Source of the DNA: Candidatus Omnitrophota bacterium
Lineage (GTDB): Bacteria > Omnitrophota > Gorgyraeia > 2-01-FULL-45-10
Reading direction: 5' to 3'
Length of the DNA stretch: 64,000 nt
Assembly: GCA_026387175.1 (NCBI GenBank)
Contig: JAPLME010000010.1
Location: 138,490 to 202,489 of the forward strand
The notes beneath the pieces were generated by a model. It was given only the letters and a program-made list of their open reading frames with translations, did not search any database and was not told the origin of the DNA. This document shows, piece by piece, positions 13,958-29,488 of this stretch (position 1 is its first letter; each line of letters opens with the position of its first letter). The position numbers were made by a program, and so were the translations under genes.

Positions 13958-15046
13958 CGCCCGCTTACGGACCAGATATATTCCCCAGATACCGAATAGG
14001 ACATTGCCCAGCCATGCGGCCGCTATAGGCGGAAGCAATCCGGCCTTGCCGAAGGCCAGAAATATCGCTATAGAAGCATAATATAGCAGGCCTATCGCTA
14101 TACTCATACCTATTCCCATAAGCACCCCGCCTCTCGTATTTACGATGGCAAACGGCGCGCCTATCAGGATTATGATAAAGCTTATAAACGGAAAAGCGAT
14201 CTTATAGTGGAGATCCACGAGAAGCCCTCTGATCAGCCTTGACCCGGCATTCTGGAAATTATCTATATAGCCTTTAAGCTCATTGTAACTCATATAATCG
14301 GCGCGCCATTCATTTGCGGCAAAGTCGCTCGGCCGTTCTTTAAGCTCCACGATCTTTTCATCGAAGAACTCGGGCGGTTTAAGTATCCTCCCGGAGTTGT
14401 CGATAGTGTAAAGTATCACCTTACTGAATTTCCAGCCGTCTTTTGTCCAGGCGCCTCTCTGGGCGGTGATCTTTGATGTCAGGTTCTCTTTGGTATCATG
14501 CTTATGTATTATTATGTCGGAGAGAGTCTTGTTTTCGGTGTCATAGTCACGGGCGAATATGATGCGGTTGCCGACGCCGTAGATCGCGATGTTCTTAAGT
14601 ATCCTGGACTTACCTTCTTTAAATTTATGGCTCTCCAGCTCTTCGCGCCTGATGTAATTGGCGGTCTTGGAAAATATCGGGTTGATCTTGTCGCTTATGA
14701 TAAATACGAAACTGCTTACCAGGAGGCCCAGTGCTAATAGCGGCGTGAGTATCCTCCACATGCATATTCCGCTCGATTTCATCGCGGTGATCTCGCTGTT
14801 CTTGTTGAGGTTAGACAGGAAATATACAGTGGAGAGAAGAGCGGCCATCGGCGCCACCTGCAAAAGTATCGTGGGAGTATAATAGAAGTAGAAAGCCGCG
14901 ATTGAGGTGAAAGGTATCTTGAACTTGATTATTTCATCGATAAAAGAGAATATGTCGATTATTATGGCCATCACGACGAATAATATCATGCACCAGGAGA
15001 ACGGCGCCAGGAACCCCTTAGCCATGTATTTGTCGATAAGTTTCAT
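13955..15046 (-). CDS. LptF/LptG-family LPS export ABC permease (YjgP/YjgQ)
   Basis: 363 aa, six TM helices with a periplasmic beta-jellyroll segment. N-terminus MKLIDKYMAKGFLAPF is typical of the family. Confidence 0.8.
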   Translation of the reverse strand: MKLIDKYMAKGFLAPFSWCMILFVVMAIIIDIFSFIDEIIKFKIPFTSIAAFYFYYTPTILLQVAPMAALLSTVYFLSNLNKNSEITAMKSSGICMWRILTPLLALGLLVSSFVFIISDKINPIFSKTANYIRREELESHKFKEGKSRILKNIAIYGVGNRIIFARDYDTENKTLSDIIIHKHDTKENLTSKITAQRGAWTKDGWKFSKVILYTIDNSGRILKPPEFFDEKIVELKERPSDFAANEWRADYMSYNELKGYIDNFQNAGSRLIRGLLVDLHYKIAFPFISFIIILIGAPFAIVNTRGGVLMGIGMSIAIGLLYYASIAIFLAFGKAGLLPPIAAAWLGNVLFGIWGIYLVRKRA

Positions 15047-15778
15047 TTAAATACCTCTCGCCAGCGTAAGGCAGCGCACGGACTTAGCGCCGCGGTCAAT
15101 AAGCGCGCGGCTCGCTTCATTCAGCGTGGCGCCTGTCGTCATCACATCGTCTATTATCAGCATATCGGCGCCTTCGACGGCTTCCGATTCAATATTCGGC
15201 TTAATTCTGAACACATTTTCGAGATTAACGAGCCTCTCTTCTCTCGAGAGTTCATTCTGGTTTTTTGTGACGCGCGTCTTCTCGAGGCAGCTTATTACCG
15301 GTATGCCCAGTTCTCTTCCTACGAGTTCGGCCAATAACTCGGACTGGTTAAAGGCGCGCGTGAGCGCTCTCTTCTTATGCAAAGGCACGAATGTGATGGC
15401 GCCTGCACCTTCTATGATCTCGGGAACGTCTTTGATGAAATCCAGCATTATCCCGGTGAATACTCCGGAGAGCATCCGTCTATTATTATATTTGAACTTA
15501 TGTATCAATTCTTTTAAAGGGCCCTCATACAGGCATGCTGAATATGCGGCGCTGAAATAGGGGCGCATCTTCCGGCATTCCTGACAGATATCTTCAGGGC
15601 CCTGCATCGATCTCCCACAAGAAGCGCAATAGGGCAGAGGGTTACGCTTTATCTGTTTCAGGCAGAAACCGCACACGCCGTCTTCATTCGCGCTCTCGAG
15701 ATGTTTTCCGCAAGAAGCGCAATGCAGGGGATAGACCAGGTTAATGAGGCTCTTAGCCAGCGCAGCTACTCTATTCAC
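15047..15778 (-). CDS. comF: ComF-family phosphoribosyltransferase-like protein
   Basis: N-terminal paired CxxC zinc-finger motifs. C-terminal PRTase motif LIIDDVMTTGATL. Confidence 0.8.
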   Translation of the reverse strand: MNRVAALAKSLINLVYPLHCASCGKHLESANEDGVCGFCLKQIKRNPLPYCASCGRSMQGPEDICQECRKMRPYFSAAYSACLYEGPLKELIHKFKYNNRRMLSGVFTGIMLDFIKDVPEIIEGAGAITFVPLHKKRALTRAFNQSELLAELVGRELGIPVISCLEKTRVTKNQNELSREERLVNLENVFRIKPNIESEAVEGADMLIIDDVMTTGATLNEASRALIDRGAKSVRCLTLARGI

Positions 15779-15878
15779 AGCGCATATGATAACATGCCTT
15801 ACGGAAGCTTGTCAAACATCCAAAAGTCCTGATTTTTATTTGCAAATAAGCGGAAGATGGTATATACTTAATTATGAA

Positions 15879-15916
15879 AAGTAATATAGTTTAGTTATAA
15901 CTAAACTATATTACTT
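15879..15916. promoter_or_regulatory. Perfect 38-bp palindrome (putative operator) ending 7 nt upstream of the abiEii start
   Basis: AAGTAATATAGTTTAGTTATAACTAAACTATATTACTT is an exact reverse complement of itself. Confidence 0.7.
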
Positions 15917-15923
15917 ACTATTT

Positions 15924-16709
15924 ATGGATCAATATACTCACTTACAATTACGGGAAGTTTTTCATCTTGAATTCCTGAGATGGTTTGGCAGGAAGGTAAA
16001 GGCGGGAGATTATGCTGTTAAGGGAGGCGTGAATTTGCGCCTCTTCTTTAAAAGCTTCCGTTACTCCGAGGATATGGATCTGGATGCGCGCGGTGTCAAA
16101 GTTATTGAGCTCAAAGAGATAGTGATGAAGATACTTAACGCTTCCGCGTTTCAAAATAATCTGAAACCGTTCGGCATAATGAGTATAATGCCGCCGGATA
16201 TCCGCAAAGCAAAACAGACCGAAACGACGCAGCGTTTTAAGATACACCTTATCGCGTCTTCAGGGGAGGACCTCTTTACAAAGGTTGAGTTTTCTCGAAG
16301 AGGCTTTGCCGGAAAAATTGTTACAGGGGCGGTTGACGATGCTATTTTGCGAACTTATAAGCTGGCGCCATTACTGGTACCGCATTATGACGTGCGCTCC
16401 GCTATCGCGCAAAAGATGAGTGCCCTTGCCGATAGAACAGCTGTACAAGCAAGAGACATTTTCGATATTTACCTTCTCAGCTCTCAATATATCGCCGGCG
16501 CCGGGGCATGGATCGACAATATTAAGTTCGGCGTCCTTTCGAAAGCGTATGAACGTGTCTTTGAAGTCGAATTTGAACAGTTCAGGGATACCGTGGTCTC
16601 ATATCTATCCGTCGAAGACCAGCCGGTGTATGATAACCCGCAAACATGGGAAGAGATTCGGCTGAAAGTCGCTCATTTTATCGAAGAGGTGCGCAAGTCC
16701 TATGCGTAG
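15924..16709 (+). CDS. AbiEii/AbiGii-family nucleotidyltransferase toxin (type IV TA system)
   Basis: VKGGVNLRLFFKSFRYSEDMDLD matches the AbiEii N-terminal hallmark (KGGTaLrL..g..RfSeDiDf). 261 aa. Confidence 0.8.
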   Translation: MDQYTHLQLREVFHLEFLRWFGRKVKAGDYAVKGGVNLRLFFKSFRYSEDMDLDARGVKVIELKEIVMKILNASAFQNNLKPFGIMSIMPPDIRKAKQTETTQRFKIHLIASSGEDLFTKVEFSRRGFAGKIVTGAVDDAILRTYKLAPLLVPHYDVRSAIAQKMSALADRTAVQARDIFDIYLLSSQYIAGAGAWIDNIKFGVLSKAYERVFEVEFEQFRDTVVSYLSVEDQPVYDNPQTWEEIRLKVAHFIEEVRKSYA

Positions 16710-17343
16710 AAGATCGATACTTCTGACTATTAATAAACTCAGTAACCGGATATTTACTACCCGTGAAATCGCTATGTCCTCCGGGAAATCATTGTCGGTG
16801 GTCACCCAATCTCTTAATAATCTGGTGCGGAATGGGGTTGTAACTAAGATATGTAGAGGCGTGTGGATGAAAGAGGGGAGTGAAGCGGTGAGCCCATACG
16901 CTGTTATCCCATATTTATTTCCCAGACATCGCGCTTACATCTCATTTATAACGGCGCTTCATCTTTATGGCATTATCGAGCAGATTCCGCAGGTAACGAC
17001 GCTCGCCTCAACAGACCACTCCAGGATCATTCGCACTAAAGCCGGAGTTTTTTATACGCATCATATAGCGCCTTCGTTCTTTGCCGGGTTCGGATGGTAT
17101 AAAGGGAATGCGGGTTTTCTGATCGCCGAGCCTGAAAAAGCGTTGGTAGACAGCCTGTATCTCTCGGCCCATAAGAAGAGGCAGTTTGGCCATTTCCCCG
17201 AGCTTCATTTTCCGGGTTCATTCAGTTTTAAACGCGCTAAGGAGTGGGTGGGTAAAATTAATAGTCCCGCCACGCGTATTTACGTTAAGAGTAAACTCGA
17301 AGCTATTAGAGCGCAATCAAAGATCGCGCCAATATCCTCGTAA
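16702..17343 (+). CDS. AbiEi-family antitoxin/transcriptional regulator
   Basis: Overlaps the upstream stop by 8 nt (ATGCGTAG). N-terminal wHTH ending in the RGVW (RGVY-type) motif, then the AbiEi C-terminal domain (ISFITALHLYGIIEQIP). Confidence 0.75.
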   Translation: MRRRSILLTINKLSNRIFTTREIAMSSGKSLSVVTQSLNNLVRNGVVTKICRGVWMKEGSEAVSPYAVIPYLFPRHRAYISFITALHLYGIIEQIPQVTTLASTDHSRIIRTKAGVFYTHHIAPSFFAGFGWYKGNAGFLIAEPEKALVDSLYLSAHKKRQFGHFPELHFPGSFSFKRAKEWVGKINSPATRIYVKSKLEAIRAQSKIAPISS

Positions 17344-17354
17344 ATACATAAGGC

Positions 17355-17390
17355 ATCGAACCGGTTACAGTTTGTGACCGGTTCTTTTCG
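17355..17390 (+). terminator. Rho-independent terminator
   Basis: CGAACCGGT-tacagtttgtg-ACCGGTTC followed by TTTTCGTTC. Confidence 0.75.
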
Positions 17391-17449
17391 TTCTACAAGG
17401 GTTATTTTTGTTGACGATATGAGGTTAAAGTAGTAATATTTAACCGGCC

Positions 17450-19171
17450 ATGAAGACCACCCGCCTTATAATATTACTGGTAATGACGCTACTTTTAGCG
17501 CCGCCGCGAGCTTTCGCCCAGCCGCCCAATCCTAGCCAGGAGATCGGCGGTATCCAGAGGACTCGCGAGATGGAAGAGAGGGCGAAGAAATTAACATCGG
17601 AAGTTCAAGCGAAGAAACAGAAGCCTAAGATAGAAGAAGAGAAATTACCGTCCGAAATAGCTCCGGCCCTCCCCAACGAAAAGATCCTGATCAAGAATGT
17701 AGTGGTTATCGGTGCCACGCTGATACCGGAAAAAGACATCAGGGCCATAGTCGATCCTTTCGAAAATAAAGAGCTTTCTATTGCGGAGATGCAGAAGGCG
17801 GTGGACCTGATAACGGATGCCTACCGCAAAAAAGGGTATATAACGTCGCGCGCTTATATCCCTCCCCAGAAGATCGAAAATAACAGGTTTGAGATAAGGG
17901 TCATCGAGGGAAAGATGGGAGATCTCGACGTAACGGGTAACCGCTACTATAAGAACTTTCTCTTTAAAAAAAAATTCCTGCTGAAAAAGGGCGAGGCCTT
18001 TAACTACTATGTCCTCGCCAGGACCCTGCGCAAGATAAATGAGCAGCCGGACAGGTTCGCAAAGGCGGTCCTGGTTCCCGGTAAAGAGCCTGGCGCCACG
18101 GATGTCGTGCTGGAAGTGAAAGACGACCTGCCCGCTCATGCGGGAGTTAATTACGACAATTACGGCTCGCGCTACATCCTGAACGACCGCTATCAGTTCA
18201 ACGTTTCACACAATAATCTTTTGGGTTTCGAGGACCTGTTTCAATTCCAGTATACTATGACGCAGGCTGAGACGTATCGTCTTATAGGCGGAAGCTACGT
18301 TCTCCCGCTGACAGAGAAACTTAAAGTGGGATTCTCCGCTCTCTGGGCAAAACTGCATCTATTGAATGACTATAAGCCGCTCGATGTGCGCGGCAAGAGC
18401 GAGCTATACAGCATCTTCGCCACGCAATCTATCCTGGATGAAGAAAAATACAGCGTGAATTTGAATGCCGGATTCGATATAAAAGACGTCTTTAACTTTC
18501 AAAACGACCAGGAGACGAGCCGCGACAGGATGCGCGTAGCTAAGATAGGAATAGACGCCGATCTCACCGATCCGCTCGGGCGAAGTATATTTACAAACGG
18601 AGTAGAGATAGGCATACCGGGCTTCATGGGCGGCCTTAAATACAAGGACCCGCGAGCTTCCACTGTCGGTTCAGGCGGCGAGTTTGTAAAGTATGTTATG
18701 AACTTTTACCGGTTACAGCCGATGCCGTTCGAATCATCGATCCTTTTCAAAAACCAACTGCAGGTTTCGAACAAGCCGCTTACGTCTACTGAACAGTTTC
18801 AGATAGGCGGCATCATCAATACGAGGGGGTATCCTCCGGCTGAACTCGTAGGCGATCAGGGTTTTTCCAGCACGACCGAGTGGTCCTTCCCGGTATATTT
18901 ACTGCCTAAAGACGCGAAGATCCCGTCGACGCAGATCAATTGGTATGATACCGTAAGATTTGTCACTTTTTATGATTACGGCAACGTCCGCTTAAGAAAA
19001 CCGGGAGGCAACGCGAGTAAATTCGGCCAATTAAGCGATTTCGGATGGGGAATCAGATTTAACCTGCCGAAACATTTTTCTTTCAAAGTGGATTTCGCCT
19101 ATCCCATTGATAAAGGCGCTTCCGATGGCAAAACTAACCGCACCTGGATGCAGATCTCGTCGAATTTTTAA
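17450..19171 (+). CDS. Two-partner secretion outer-membrane transporter (TpsB; ShlB/FhaC/HecB family)
   Basis: Signal peptide, POTRA region (ITSRAYIPPQKIENNRFEIRVIEGKMGDLDVTGN) and a C-terminal beta-barrel ending in an aromatic residue. Confidence 0.85.
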   Translation: MKTTRLIILLVMTLLLAPPRAFAQPPNPSQEIGGIQRTREMEERAKKLTSEVQAKKQKPKIEEEKLPSEIAPALPNEKILIKNVVVIGATLIPEKDIRAIVDPFENKELSIAEMQKAVDLITDAYRKKGYITSRAYIPPQKIENNRFEIRVIEGKMGDLDVTGNRYYKNFLFKKKFLLKKGEAFNYYVLARTLRKINEQPDRFAKAVLVPGKEPGATDVVLEVKDDLPAHAGVNYDNYGSRYILNDRYQFNVSHNNLLGFEDLFQFQYTMTQAETYRLIGGSYVLPLTEKLKVGFSALWAKLHLLNDYKPLDVRGKSELYSIFATQSILDEEKYSVNLNAGFDIKDVFNFQNDQETSRDRMRVAKIGIDADLTDPLGRSIFTNGVEIGIPGFMGGLKYKDPRASTVGSGGEFVKYVMNFYRLQPMPFESSILFKNQLQVSNKPLTSTEQFQIGGIINTRGYPPAELVGDQGFSSTTEWSFPVYLLPKDAKIPSTQINWYDTVRFVTFYDYGNVRLRKPGGNASKFGQLSDFGWGIRFNLPKHFSFKVDFAYPIDKGASDGKTNRTWMQISSNF

Positions 19172-19260
19172 GTGTAATTTGAATTCATGTAAAATATAAA
19201 AAAGTAAGCTTTTCTGATTGACTTTCGTTTCCCCAGGGTGTAAGATGAAGATGAGGGAAG

Positions 19261-28854: not shown

Positions 28855-29488
28855 AGTACTGGAGATCGAAGCCCTGGAAAGGATGAATAGCGGCAGATTC
28901 CTTGAACCGCTGGTATTTGGCGGCGGCACAATGCTCAGGCTGTGTTACGAGCTGAACAGGTACTCTGTAGATCTCGACTTTTGGTTTGTGAAAAAGACCG
29001 ACCCTGAATTATATTTTACTAAATTAAAAAAATACCTTGCCGAACAATATGAATTGACCGACGCCTGGATAAAACATTATACGATTTTGCTGGAGTTGCG
29101 CGCCAAAGGCTATCCCAAAAGGCTTAAACTTGAAATACGCAAAGAGGTAAAAAAGTGCGATTTTGAGGAGCGGATAGCGTTCTCTACCTTTAGCTCAAAG
29201 CAGGTTATCTTAAAGGTCATGTCTTTAGAGCAGATGATGAAGAATAAGATCGAGGCGGCTTTGGAGCGCCATGAGATAAGGGATTTCTATGACATAGAGT
29301 TTTTACTCAGAAAGGGGATAGCGCTAAAAGCGTCCCGGGAAGATTTAAATGGGTTATTGCGCGTGTCAAACAGGTTTAAAGAAAGCGACTTCAGGGTTGC
29401 CCTAGGTTCACTGGTAAAGAAGGATGTCAGGGAATATTACATAACACACAAGTTCACTTATCTGCAGGAAAAGATAGCCGCCTCCTAG
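28832..29488 (+). CDS. AbiEii-family nucleotidyltransferase toxin (second copy)
   Basis: FGGGTMLRLCYELNRYSVDLDF hallmark motif. Overlaps the antitoxin gene by 23 nt. Confidence 0.8.
   Translation: MDTFERHEVLEIEALERMNSGRFLEPLVFGGGTMLRLCYELNRYSVDLDFWFVKKTDPELYFTKLKKYLAEQYELTDAWIKHYTILLELRAKGYPKRLKLEIRKEVKKCDFEERIAFSTFSSKQVILKVMSLEQMMKNKIEAALERHEIRDFYDIEFLLRKGIALKASREDLNGLLRVSNRFKESDFRVALGSLVKKDVREYYITHKFTYLQEKIAAS

Follow-up and report, generated by a model that had tools for sequence, protein, structure and literature searches.

How should an AbiE toxin-antitoxin pair be understood when its toxin gene comes first? In the founding description of AbiE systems, the regulator gene precedes the nucleotidyltransferase gene in each pair (Dy et al. 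2014, PMC3985639). The opposite arrangement occurs in a 64,000-nucleotide stretch of a Candidatus Omnitrophota genome (contig JAPLME010000010.1, positions 138,490 to 202,489; hereafter the window, numbered from its first letter). Here an AbiEii-like gene (ORF1, the predicted toxin) is followed by an AbiEi-like gene (ORF2, the predicted antitoxin and repressor), and both lie behind a long perfect palindrome. The region 15840–17394 most likely forms one self-contained toxin-first AbiE (DUF1814/COG5340) toxin-antitoxin cassette, for which a mechanism is proposed below. An initial annotation of the window, made from the letters alone, had pointed out the reversed order and the palindrome. The comparative analysis reported here retains most of that description and extends the reversed order to a large family of relatives.

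The elements of the cassette are as follows (SD, Shine–Dalgarno):

15840–15868, + strand: sigma-70-type promoter from a promoter scan, TTGCAA (15840–15845), 17-nt spacing, TATACT (15863–15868)
15879–15916, no strand: palindrome AAGTAATATAGTTTAGTTATAACTAAACTATATTACTT, predicted operator for ORF2
15879–15916, both ends: conserved outer triplets AAG/CTT
15890–15905, within the palindrome: conserved core TTTAGTTATAACTAAA
15907–15912, inside the palindrome: residual -10-like TATATT
15924–16709, + strand: ORF1, 261 aa, DUF1814/AbiEii-type nucleotidyltransferase, predicted toxin
16684–16691, + strand: SD-like AAGAGGTG within the 3' end of ORF1, 10 nt 5' of the ORF2 start codon
16702–16709, + strand: 8-nt overlap ATGCGTAG, in which ORF2 starts and ORF1 stops, a junction for translational coupling
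16702–17343, + strand (same as ORF1): ORF2, 213 aa, AbiEi-like regulator, predicted antitoxin
17358–17394, + strand: intrinsic-terminator-like hairpin GAACCGGTTACA-GTT-TGTGACCGGTTC with a T-rich run after it, marking where the cassette ends

Identity of the two gene products

ORF1 is a predicted DUF1814/AbiEii nucleotidyltransferase, as judged by its Pfam match, its catalytic motifs and a modelled fold like those of MenT3 and JHP933. The Pfam AbiEii profile (PF08843, DUF1814) gives 58.3 bits against a cut-off of 22.5, and 24 PADLOC AbiEii models match the protein. Its motifs are G34-G35, R46-Y-S48-E-D50-M-D52, K164 and R177-D178..D181. In an alignment of 52 family members G34, G35, R46, Y47, S48, D50, K164, R177, D178 and D181 are invariant, and D52 is conserved in at least 90%. 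The conserved motif residues correspond to G49/G50, D67, D69 and D192 of Streptococcus agalactiae AbiEii, all of which have been mutated (PMC3985639). The catalytic-residue check on the first gene thus came out as the initial annotation had expected of an AbiEii-like enzyme. The motif can also be aligned with JHP933 and with the AbiEii of a second, canonical pair in the window, and a profile search matches JHP933 (4o8s). The AlphaFold2 (AF2) model has a predicted local distance difference test (pLDDT) value of 90.9, and Foldseek places it with MenT3 (7c46, E 2e-8), JHP933 (3e-8) and MenT4 (1e-6), all at probability 1.0. In S. agalactiae AbiEii, T65 is the phospho-acceptor within R63-S-T65-x-D67-x-D69 (preprint, bioRxiv 10.64898/2026.01.19.700257). 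By residue presence, S48 of ORF1, two residues before the first catalytic aspartate, matches this phospho-acceptor segment, R63-S64-T65.

ORF2 is, on its PADLOC match and on a modelled fold that matches S. agalactiae AbiEi along its full length, a predicted two-domain AbiEi-like regulator, which agrees with the name given to the second gene at the outset. The PADLOC AbiEi model PDLC02241 matches it with E 1.3e-20. A profile built from the ORF2 family finds S. agalactiae AbiEi (6y8q) and AbiGI (9hlo) in PDB at E 1e-5. The AF2 model (pLDDT 86.9) aligns with 6y8q_A over its full length in Foldseek (E 2.3e-6, 209 columns, template-modelling (TM) score 0.47–0.51). Besides the winged helix-turn-helix (wHTH), ORF2 retains the C-terminal antitoxin domain. 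The recognition helix reads S30-L-S-V-V-T-Q36-S-L-N39-N-L, and S30, S32, Q36, L38, N39 and L41 are near-invariant in the family. The loop I92-E93-Q94-I95-P96-Q97 aligns with the toxin-binding loop T-D-E-I-P-Q of AbiEi, whose D85/E86 contact the AbiEii phospho-acceptor T65 (preprint, bioRxiv 10.64898/2026.01.19.700257); E93-Q94 are the matching positions in ORF2.

In the protein collection searched, the exact ORF1 sequence is present (P0001, from a Candidatus Omnitrophica metagenome-assembled genome), and the best ORF2 match is 91%, not exact.

Toxin-first order across relatives

Relatives comprised 80 genome loci (46–74% identity to ORF1) and 80 metagenome loci, and gene order was counted where 400 nt or more of downstream sequence was available. 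The toxin gene is followed directly, on the same strand, by an ORF2 homologue in 137/137 loci, and in 77/77 when the genome loci are taken alone. The labels of the genome loci span Omnitrophota, Planctomycetia, Clostridia, Elusimicrobiota, Actinomycetota, Acidobacteriota, Chlamydiae, Thermodesulfobacteriota, Patescibacteria, Pseudomonadota and others. The 8-nt overlap that the initial annotation had noted between the two genes recurs as ATGnnTAR at the toxin/antitoxin junction of 102/152 related loci. The sole clear break of the junction is found in an Omnitrophota locus (L023, 1050–1667), where about 600 nt with an extra ORF lie between the toxin and antitoxin genes.

The order extends to more distant relatives. 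A viral contig with 40% identity has it, as do plasmids of Miltoncostaea oceani (44%), Bosea sp. ANAM02, Bosea sp. RAC05 and Acidiphilium cryptum JF-5 (pACRY02). In five toxin-first plasmid loci examined, RefSeq calls the partner gene product a 'hypothetical protein'; four of them match AbiEi models, with PADLOC E values from 9e-23 to 8e-8 (L162, L163, L166 and L168, from the plasmids of M. oceani, the Bosea species and A. cryptum JF-5). Matches at similar distance in Acaryochloris and Pseudomonas amygdali have the canonical order, and both orders occur at about 29% identity. The inverted order is thus, on sequence comparison, a trait of a large clade and not a peculiarity of the window locus: the toxin-first arrangement was correctly seen in the window, and its standing as a local oddity falls with the 137 relatives that share it.

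The window locus and all 137 relatives depart from the regulator-first arrangement of Dy et al. (2014). TASmania lists AbiEi_4.AbiEii among its enriched pairs in the antitoxin-to-toxin orientation only, and literature searches for a toxin-first AbiE clade found no paper describing one. The Discussion section of PMC11375011 cites the 2014 paper on gene order in a wording to which that paper says the opposite, probably a slip. Regulator-first order is the one AbiE feature missing at the window locus; every other testable AbiE feature is present, and the pair is accordingly named a toxin-first AbiE.

Homology among the loci begins at the promoter and palindrome and ends at the ORF2 stop codon, and the flanks are unshared; therefore the pair behaves, as far as sequence comparison goes, like a mobile two-gene cassette. 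Flanking genes are heterogeneous, with the commonest flanking protein cluster in only 23 loci. The ComF-like, ShlB-like and LptG-like neighbours of the window cassette gave no tblastn match in the 160 loci, and shared synteny with the relatives was rejected on this result. Phage carriage was also rejected, as the viral contig collection holds only one relative, and so was a compositional anomaly, the GC content of the cassette (46–48%) being equal to that of its surroundings. In two loci (L119, near 2188; L121, near 4121) a second core-like site, with at most two mismatches to TTTAGTTATAACTAAA, lies about 1.95 kb 3' of the first and may mark a second module in tandem.

The palindrome as a predicted operator

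The palindrome at 15879–15916 is 38 nt long, with 19-nt arms, no spacer and 100% complementarity, and it is separated from the ORF1 start codon (ATG, 15924) by 7 nt (ACTATTT), exactly as the initial annotation had reported. It is by a wide margin the longest zero-spacer palindrome of the window, the runner-up having arms of 8 nt. The number of palindromes with arms of at least 19 nt expected in the window from base composition is 2e-7, and the longest arm across 50 shuffles of the window is 10 nt. It occurs once within the 64 kb, and no repeated copy was found elsewhere in the window. A chance palindrome was rejected on the basis of this expectation, the shuffle maximum and the single copy.

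Comparative data strongly back the palindrome as an operator. The core TTTAGTTATAACTAAA, allowing up to five mismatches, lies just 5' of the toxin gene in 145/161 loci. Over 129 unique upstream segments, 1854/2580 symmetric positions are complementary, compared with about 740 in slid controls and 1772 ± 11 in column shuffles. Cells changed in both arms number 95, compared with 49.5 ± 5.3 in shuffles (maximum 67). Compensatory examples include TTTAC..GTAAA in Actinomycetota loci, TTTAGCTATAGCTAAA in two loci (L003 and L152), and outer ATG..CAT versus AAG..CTT. The strongly conserved symmetric positions lie 4–8 and 17–19 from the palindrome centre, which suggests a bipartite half-site. Among the 74 loci of promoter layout type A (described below), mean pairwise identity is 82% over a 42-nt stretch at the operator and 27.5% in the adjacent flank; in the coding comparison for the same loci it is 64% in the best-conserved ORF1 stretch and 44% at ORF1 third codon positions.

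The operator also varies together with the protein. Loci with the core TTTAC..GTAAA have the helix SLSNASKMLKTLEK in place of SLSxxTQxLNxL, and in L040, whose core begins TTGACG, the recognition helix carries Q -> H and N -> R. This co-variation of operator and recognition helix suggests that ORF2 reads the palindrome. Perfect 19-nt arms occur only in the window and in L152, and both carry an upstream promoter. This fits a palindrome freed of the asymmetry that -35 and -10 hexamers bring with them. The palindrome had been proposed as an operator for an AbiEi dimer. The operator part of that proposal gains support from the 145 loci and the co-variation; the dimer does not fit, since characterised AbiEi binds as two monomers on two inverted repeats, with no preformed dimer (PMC7319586).

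Promoter layout and translation signals

Two layouts of promoter and operator can be distinguished among the relatives. The consensus of type A is wATGTATTGmAA-TTTAGTTATAACTAAA-yTATAATACATAAtt-ATG. In this layout, found in 74/129 unique loci, a TTGmAA -35 and a TATAAT -10 at 17-nt spacing lie inside the palindrome. The start codon follows the -10 by 6–8 nt in 53/66 type A loci; therefore a leaderless or nearly leaderless toxin mRNA is implied for most relatives. M. oceani and the viral relative at 40% identity share this geometry of -35, -10, 7 nt and ATG.

Type B is the layout of the window's own clade (toxin identity about 69% or more, mostly Omnitrophota). Here the internal hexamers have decayed, to AATATA and TATATT in the window, and a separate, conserved upstream promoter, TTGCAA/TTGCCA-17-TATACT, lies 18–24 nt before the core (L002, L003, L081, L083, L085, L088, L089 and others). 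The operator spans roughly +4 to +41 in this layout, and transcription from the window promoter is predicted to start near 15875. The resulting leader would fold into a hairpin with a 17-bp stem (-19 kcal/mol, z = -5.3), leaving 7 nt between the stem and the AUG. No Rfam family matched the region 15000–18000 at E up to 1.

Two further features of this leader can be recorded. The window's clade conserves a motif, ACTTAT(T/C)A, 4–8 nt 5' of the toxin start codon (15905–15923; aligned L081–L110). A mini-ORF (ATG AAA AGT AAT ATA GTT TAG, 15874–15894) runs from the predicted transcription start into the palindrome core; its ATG is present in L081, L083, L085, L089 and L100; other close relatives have GTG or TTG there, or no start codon. 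The mini-ORF was dropped as a candidate, its start codon being unconserved, and is probably no gene.

The two cistrons differ markedly in their predicted ribosome-binding signals. ORF1 is without an SD sequence: its anti-SD pairing of +2.7 kcal/mol is the weakest among 38 window genes, in a genome where about half of the genes pair at -4 or better, and the mean ORF1 value in relatives is about 0 kcal/mol. The SD of ORF2, AAGAGGTG, forms an anti-SD duplex of -7.1 kcal/mol, with family means of -5 to -6. An SD-like motif lies 5' of ORF2 in 69/120 related loci and 5' of ORF1 in 14/120. Leaderless and SD-less starts are usually less efficiently translated than SD-led ones in bacteria. Because the toxin cistron is leaderless or SD-less and the antitoxin cistron SD-led, we infer from these signals that the antitoxin would be made in excess despite its second position.

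The initial annotation had expected the reversed order to imply a different control of stoichiometry, as in HigBA- or MqsRA-type modules. The asymmetry in SD signals agrees with the first half of this idea. The control visible in the sequence seems to differ from that of MqsRA: no conserved antitoxin-only promoter of that kind is evident; a promoter-like CTGAAA-17-TATAAT at 16161–16189 inside ORF1, a candidate not checked in other loci, lies on a family-variable stretch (consensus FGIxxxxPPD) and is recorded for the window only.

Alternative explanations

Several observations weigh against a toxin-first AbiE cassette with a DNA operator. ORF2 scores below the curated cut-offs of NCBIfam TAA_AbiEi (49 bits, E 5e-13, cut-off 150) and Pfam AbiEi_4 (21.8 bits, cut-off 25), and it is no more than about 20% identical to AbiEi proteins of solved structure. 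The protein–DNA co-variation comes from few independent events, chiefly one Actinomycetota clade. The palindrome of the window's clade is probably part of the transcript, and ORF1 is SD-less behind a structured leader of about 49 nt with the -19 kcal/mol hairpin. According to the bioRxiv preprint 10.64898/2026.01.19.700257, MenT4/MenA4 shows that phosphorylation is not universal in the family.

The transcribed palindrome invites the idea that, at the window locus, it works chiefly at the RNA level, as a leader hairpin by which translation or stability of the toxin mRNA is controlled, and not as a protein-binding DNA operator. The upstream promoter at 15840–15868, with its start near 15875, and the stable 17-bp stem so close to the AUG speak for this idea, which we nevertheless judge improbable. 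In type A loci (74/129) the palindrome is untranscribed, with the -35 and -10 inside it and the ATG 6–8 nt further on, yet it is equally conserved; moreover, changes in the core go together with changes in the wHTH recognition helix. The window's clade conserves the core and the outer AAG/CTT only, the mid-arms being often non-complementary, which fits protein contacts better than a stem, and the Rfam search was negative. It is hardly credible that the palindrome serves recombination or mobility of the cassette, perhaps as the target of a site-specific recombinase, and not transcription control. The genomic context differs at every locus and homology does start at the promoter/palindrome, but the 3' end of the cassette lacks a second copy, extra core-like sites occur in only 2/128 loci, no recombinase gene is linked, and the fixed register with -35, -10 and start codon points to transcription control.

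A different kind of doubt concerns the pair itself, which might be no toxin-antitoxin or defence module at all: ORF1 would be a non-toxic nucleotidyltransferase and ORF2 merely its dedicated transcription factor. An order of enzyme then regulator would suit such a pair, as would the RefSeq name 'hypothetical protein' for the partner. This explanation seems quite improbable given that every residue that serves catalysis or accepts phosphate in toxic relatives is invariant in the family and that ORF2 retains both the antitoxin domain at its C-terminus and the loop for toxin binding. The two genes are unseparated in 137/137 loci and move together into unrelated contexts, as is typical of addictive or defence cassettes, and other toxin-antitoxin modules lie nearby in the window. 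The toxin-first AbiE cassette with a DNA operator is therefore the preferred reading.

Proposed mechanism

In the proposed toxin-first AbiE cassette, a promoter is followed by a 38-bp operator, the toxin gene, the overlapping antitoxin/repressor gene and a terminator. Two ORF2 protomers would bind the two 19-bp half-sites and turn transcription off, by analogy with S. agalactiae AbiE and Mycobacterium tuberculosis MenAT, with half-site contacts 4–8 and 17–19 bp from the centre. ORF1, by analogy with characterised relatives, might add nucleotides to the 3' ends of tRNA so that translation stops. Neutralisation, again by analogy, would involve binding of ORF2 to ORF1 through the E93-Q-I-P-Q loop, leading to auto-phosphorylation at S48. 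Unequal translation could make the toxin-first order safe: the toxin cistron would be leaderless in most relatives, or SD-less behind a hairpin in the window, and the antitoxin cistron would be served by its own SD and by coupling to the toxin cistron through the ATGnnTAR overlap. The type IV label given initially to AbiE is out of step with current work, in which the family is being moved to type VII on the basis of antitoxin-induced auto-phosphorylation of the toxin (bioRxiv 10.64898/2026.01.19.700257).

A broader and rather doubtful proposal, offered tentatively, is that the toxin-first clade represents a host-independent expression cassette, the gene order being an adaptation for horizontal spread across phyla and no neutral inversion. 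A segment of about 46 nt would then fuse a near-consensus promoter, the operator of the repressor and a leaderless start codon. If true, the cassette could be expressed and self-repressed in almost any bacterium, and it would be explained why a non-coding operator is better conserved than coding sequence across at least 10 phylum labels. The proposal would also account for the toxin's place at the head of the operon, since a cistron in any other position cannot be leaderless and thereby be translated weakly but universally.

The canonical copy and neighbouring features

The window also holds a second AbiE pair, whose canonical order was noted initially and stands:

28200–28228: promoter TTGACA (28200–28205), 17-nt spacing, TATACT (28223–28228)
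28229–28250, directly after the promoter: inverted repeat TAATTAACA-AATA-TGTTAATTA (9-4-9)
28252–28854 and 28832–29488: canonical AbiE pair, AbiEi then AbiEii

The AbiEi of this copy shares 27% identity with ORF2 over 164 aa, and PADLOC PDLC02241 is the best match of both; its AbiEii has the catalytic motifs only in common with ORF1. Like the toxin-first cassette, the canonical copy has a promoter and then an inverted repeat, but the repeat is short and the antitoxin gene comes first. An SD-like AGGTG suggests that the true start of the canonical AbiEi is the ATG at 28261 and not the GTG at 28252.

Directly upstream of the canonical pair, at 27349–28037, lies a toxin-antitoxin-like pair in which a 96-aa ORF (no Pfam match) overlaps a PIN_3 protein (VapC-like), so that the region forms a small cluster of such modules. 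Right after the toxin-first cassette there is a two-partner-secretion arrangement (17450–25272) with a ShlB/FhaC-type transporter carrying POTRA domains (17450–19171) and a repeat-rich ORF of at least 2003 aa, near whose end a block containing VEYTGTGTALKAGNSYTNLTFSGT is duplicated.

Significance

AbiE and MenAT systems have drawn study as toxin modules that act in phage defence and target tRNA; in all characterised cases the antitoxin gene comes first. A phylum-spanning toxin-first clade means that the antitoxin-first rule of the founding paper is not general. It also exposes an annotation gap, the AbiEi-like partners of toxin-first plasmid loci being 'hypothetical proteins' in RefSeq. The natural variants of helix and base (Q36/N39 with G versus K/K with C) offer a test case for AbiEi-type DNA reading. 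The clade is, moreover, a natural experiment in how a toxin-first operon avoids self-poisoning with a catalytic (phosphorylation-inducing) antitoxin, as opposed to stoichiometric sequestration. Cultured carriers (Acidiphilium cryptum JF-5 with pACRY02, Bosea and Miltoncostaea oceani) make experiments possible.

Comparison with known systems

The reference system of the family is S. agalactiae AbiE. It shares with the window locus the DUF1814 nucleotidyltransferase motifs (GG, R-x-S/T-x-D-x-D, K and RDxxD), a partner with a wHTH and a C-terminal domain, a bicistronic overlapping operon, and an antitoxin loop of the form D/E-x-IPQ. Its AbiEi monomers bind inverted repeats of 23-3-23 that overlap the promoter, one protomer on each (PMC3985639; PMC7319586); the predicted operator of the window is 19-0-19. 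Type A loci resemble S. agalactiae in having the promoter hexamers embedded in the two repeats, whereas the window's clade has its operator 3' of the promoter. S. agalactiae AbiE is antitoxin-first with a 4-nt overlap, and the window cassette toxin-first with an 8-nt overlap. A 26-nt leader and a ribosome-binding site precede abiEi in S. agalactiae (PMC3985639), in contrast to the predicted leaderless or SD-less toxin of the window family.

In M. tuberculosis, MenA3-MenT3 (Rv1044-Rv1045) and MenA4-MenT4 (Rv2827c-Rv2826c) combine a COG5340 antitoxin with a DUF1814 toxin, as here, and the MenT3/MenT4 structures (7c46, 6y5u, 6y56) are the best structural matches of ORF1. MenT3 is neutralised through antitoxin-induced phosphorylation of S78, the equivalent of S48 in ORF1. 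These systems differ in that the antitoxin gene comes first, and sequence identity is 16–18%. Rv2827c binds four 23-bp repeats with negative cooperativity (PMC7319586).

The type II modules MqsRA, HigBA and HicAB provide the parallel in gene order: the toxin gene is first and the antitoxin is a DNA-binding repressor, as predicted here for ORF2. Their proteins are unrelated, ORF1 being a predicted nucleotidyltransferase and no RNase of the RelE, MqsR or HicA type. In MqsRA, according to PMC6918082, excess antitoxin arises through antitoxin-only promoters inside the toxin gene; in the window family, the asymmetry would lie in the translation signals.

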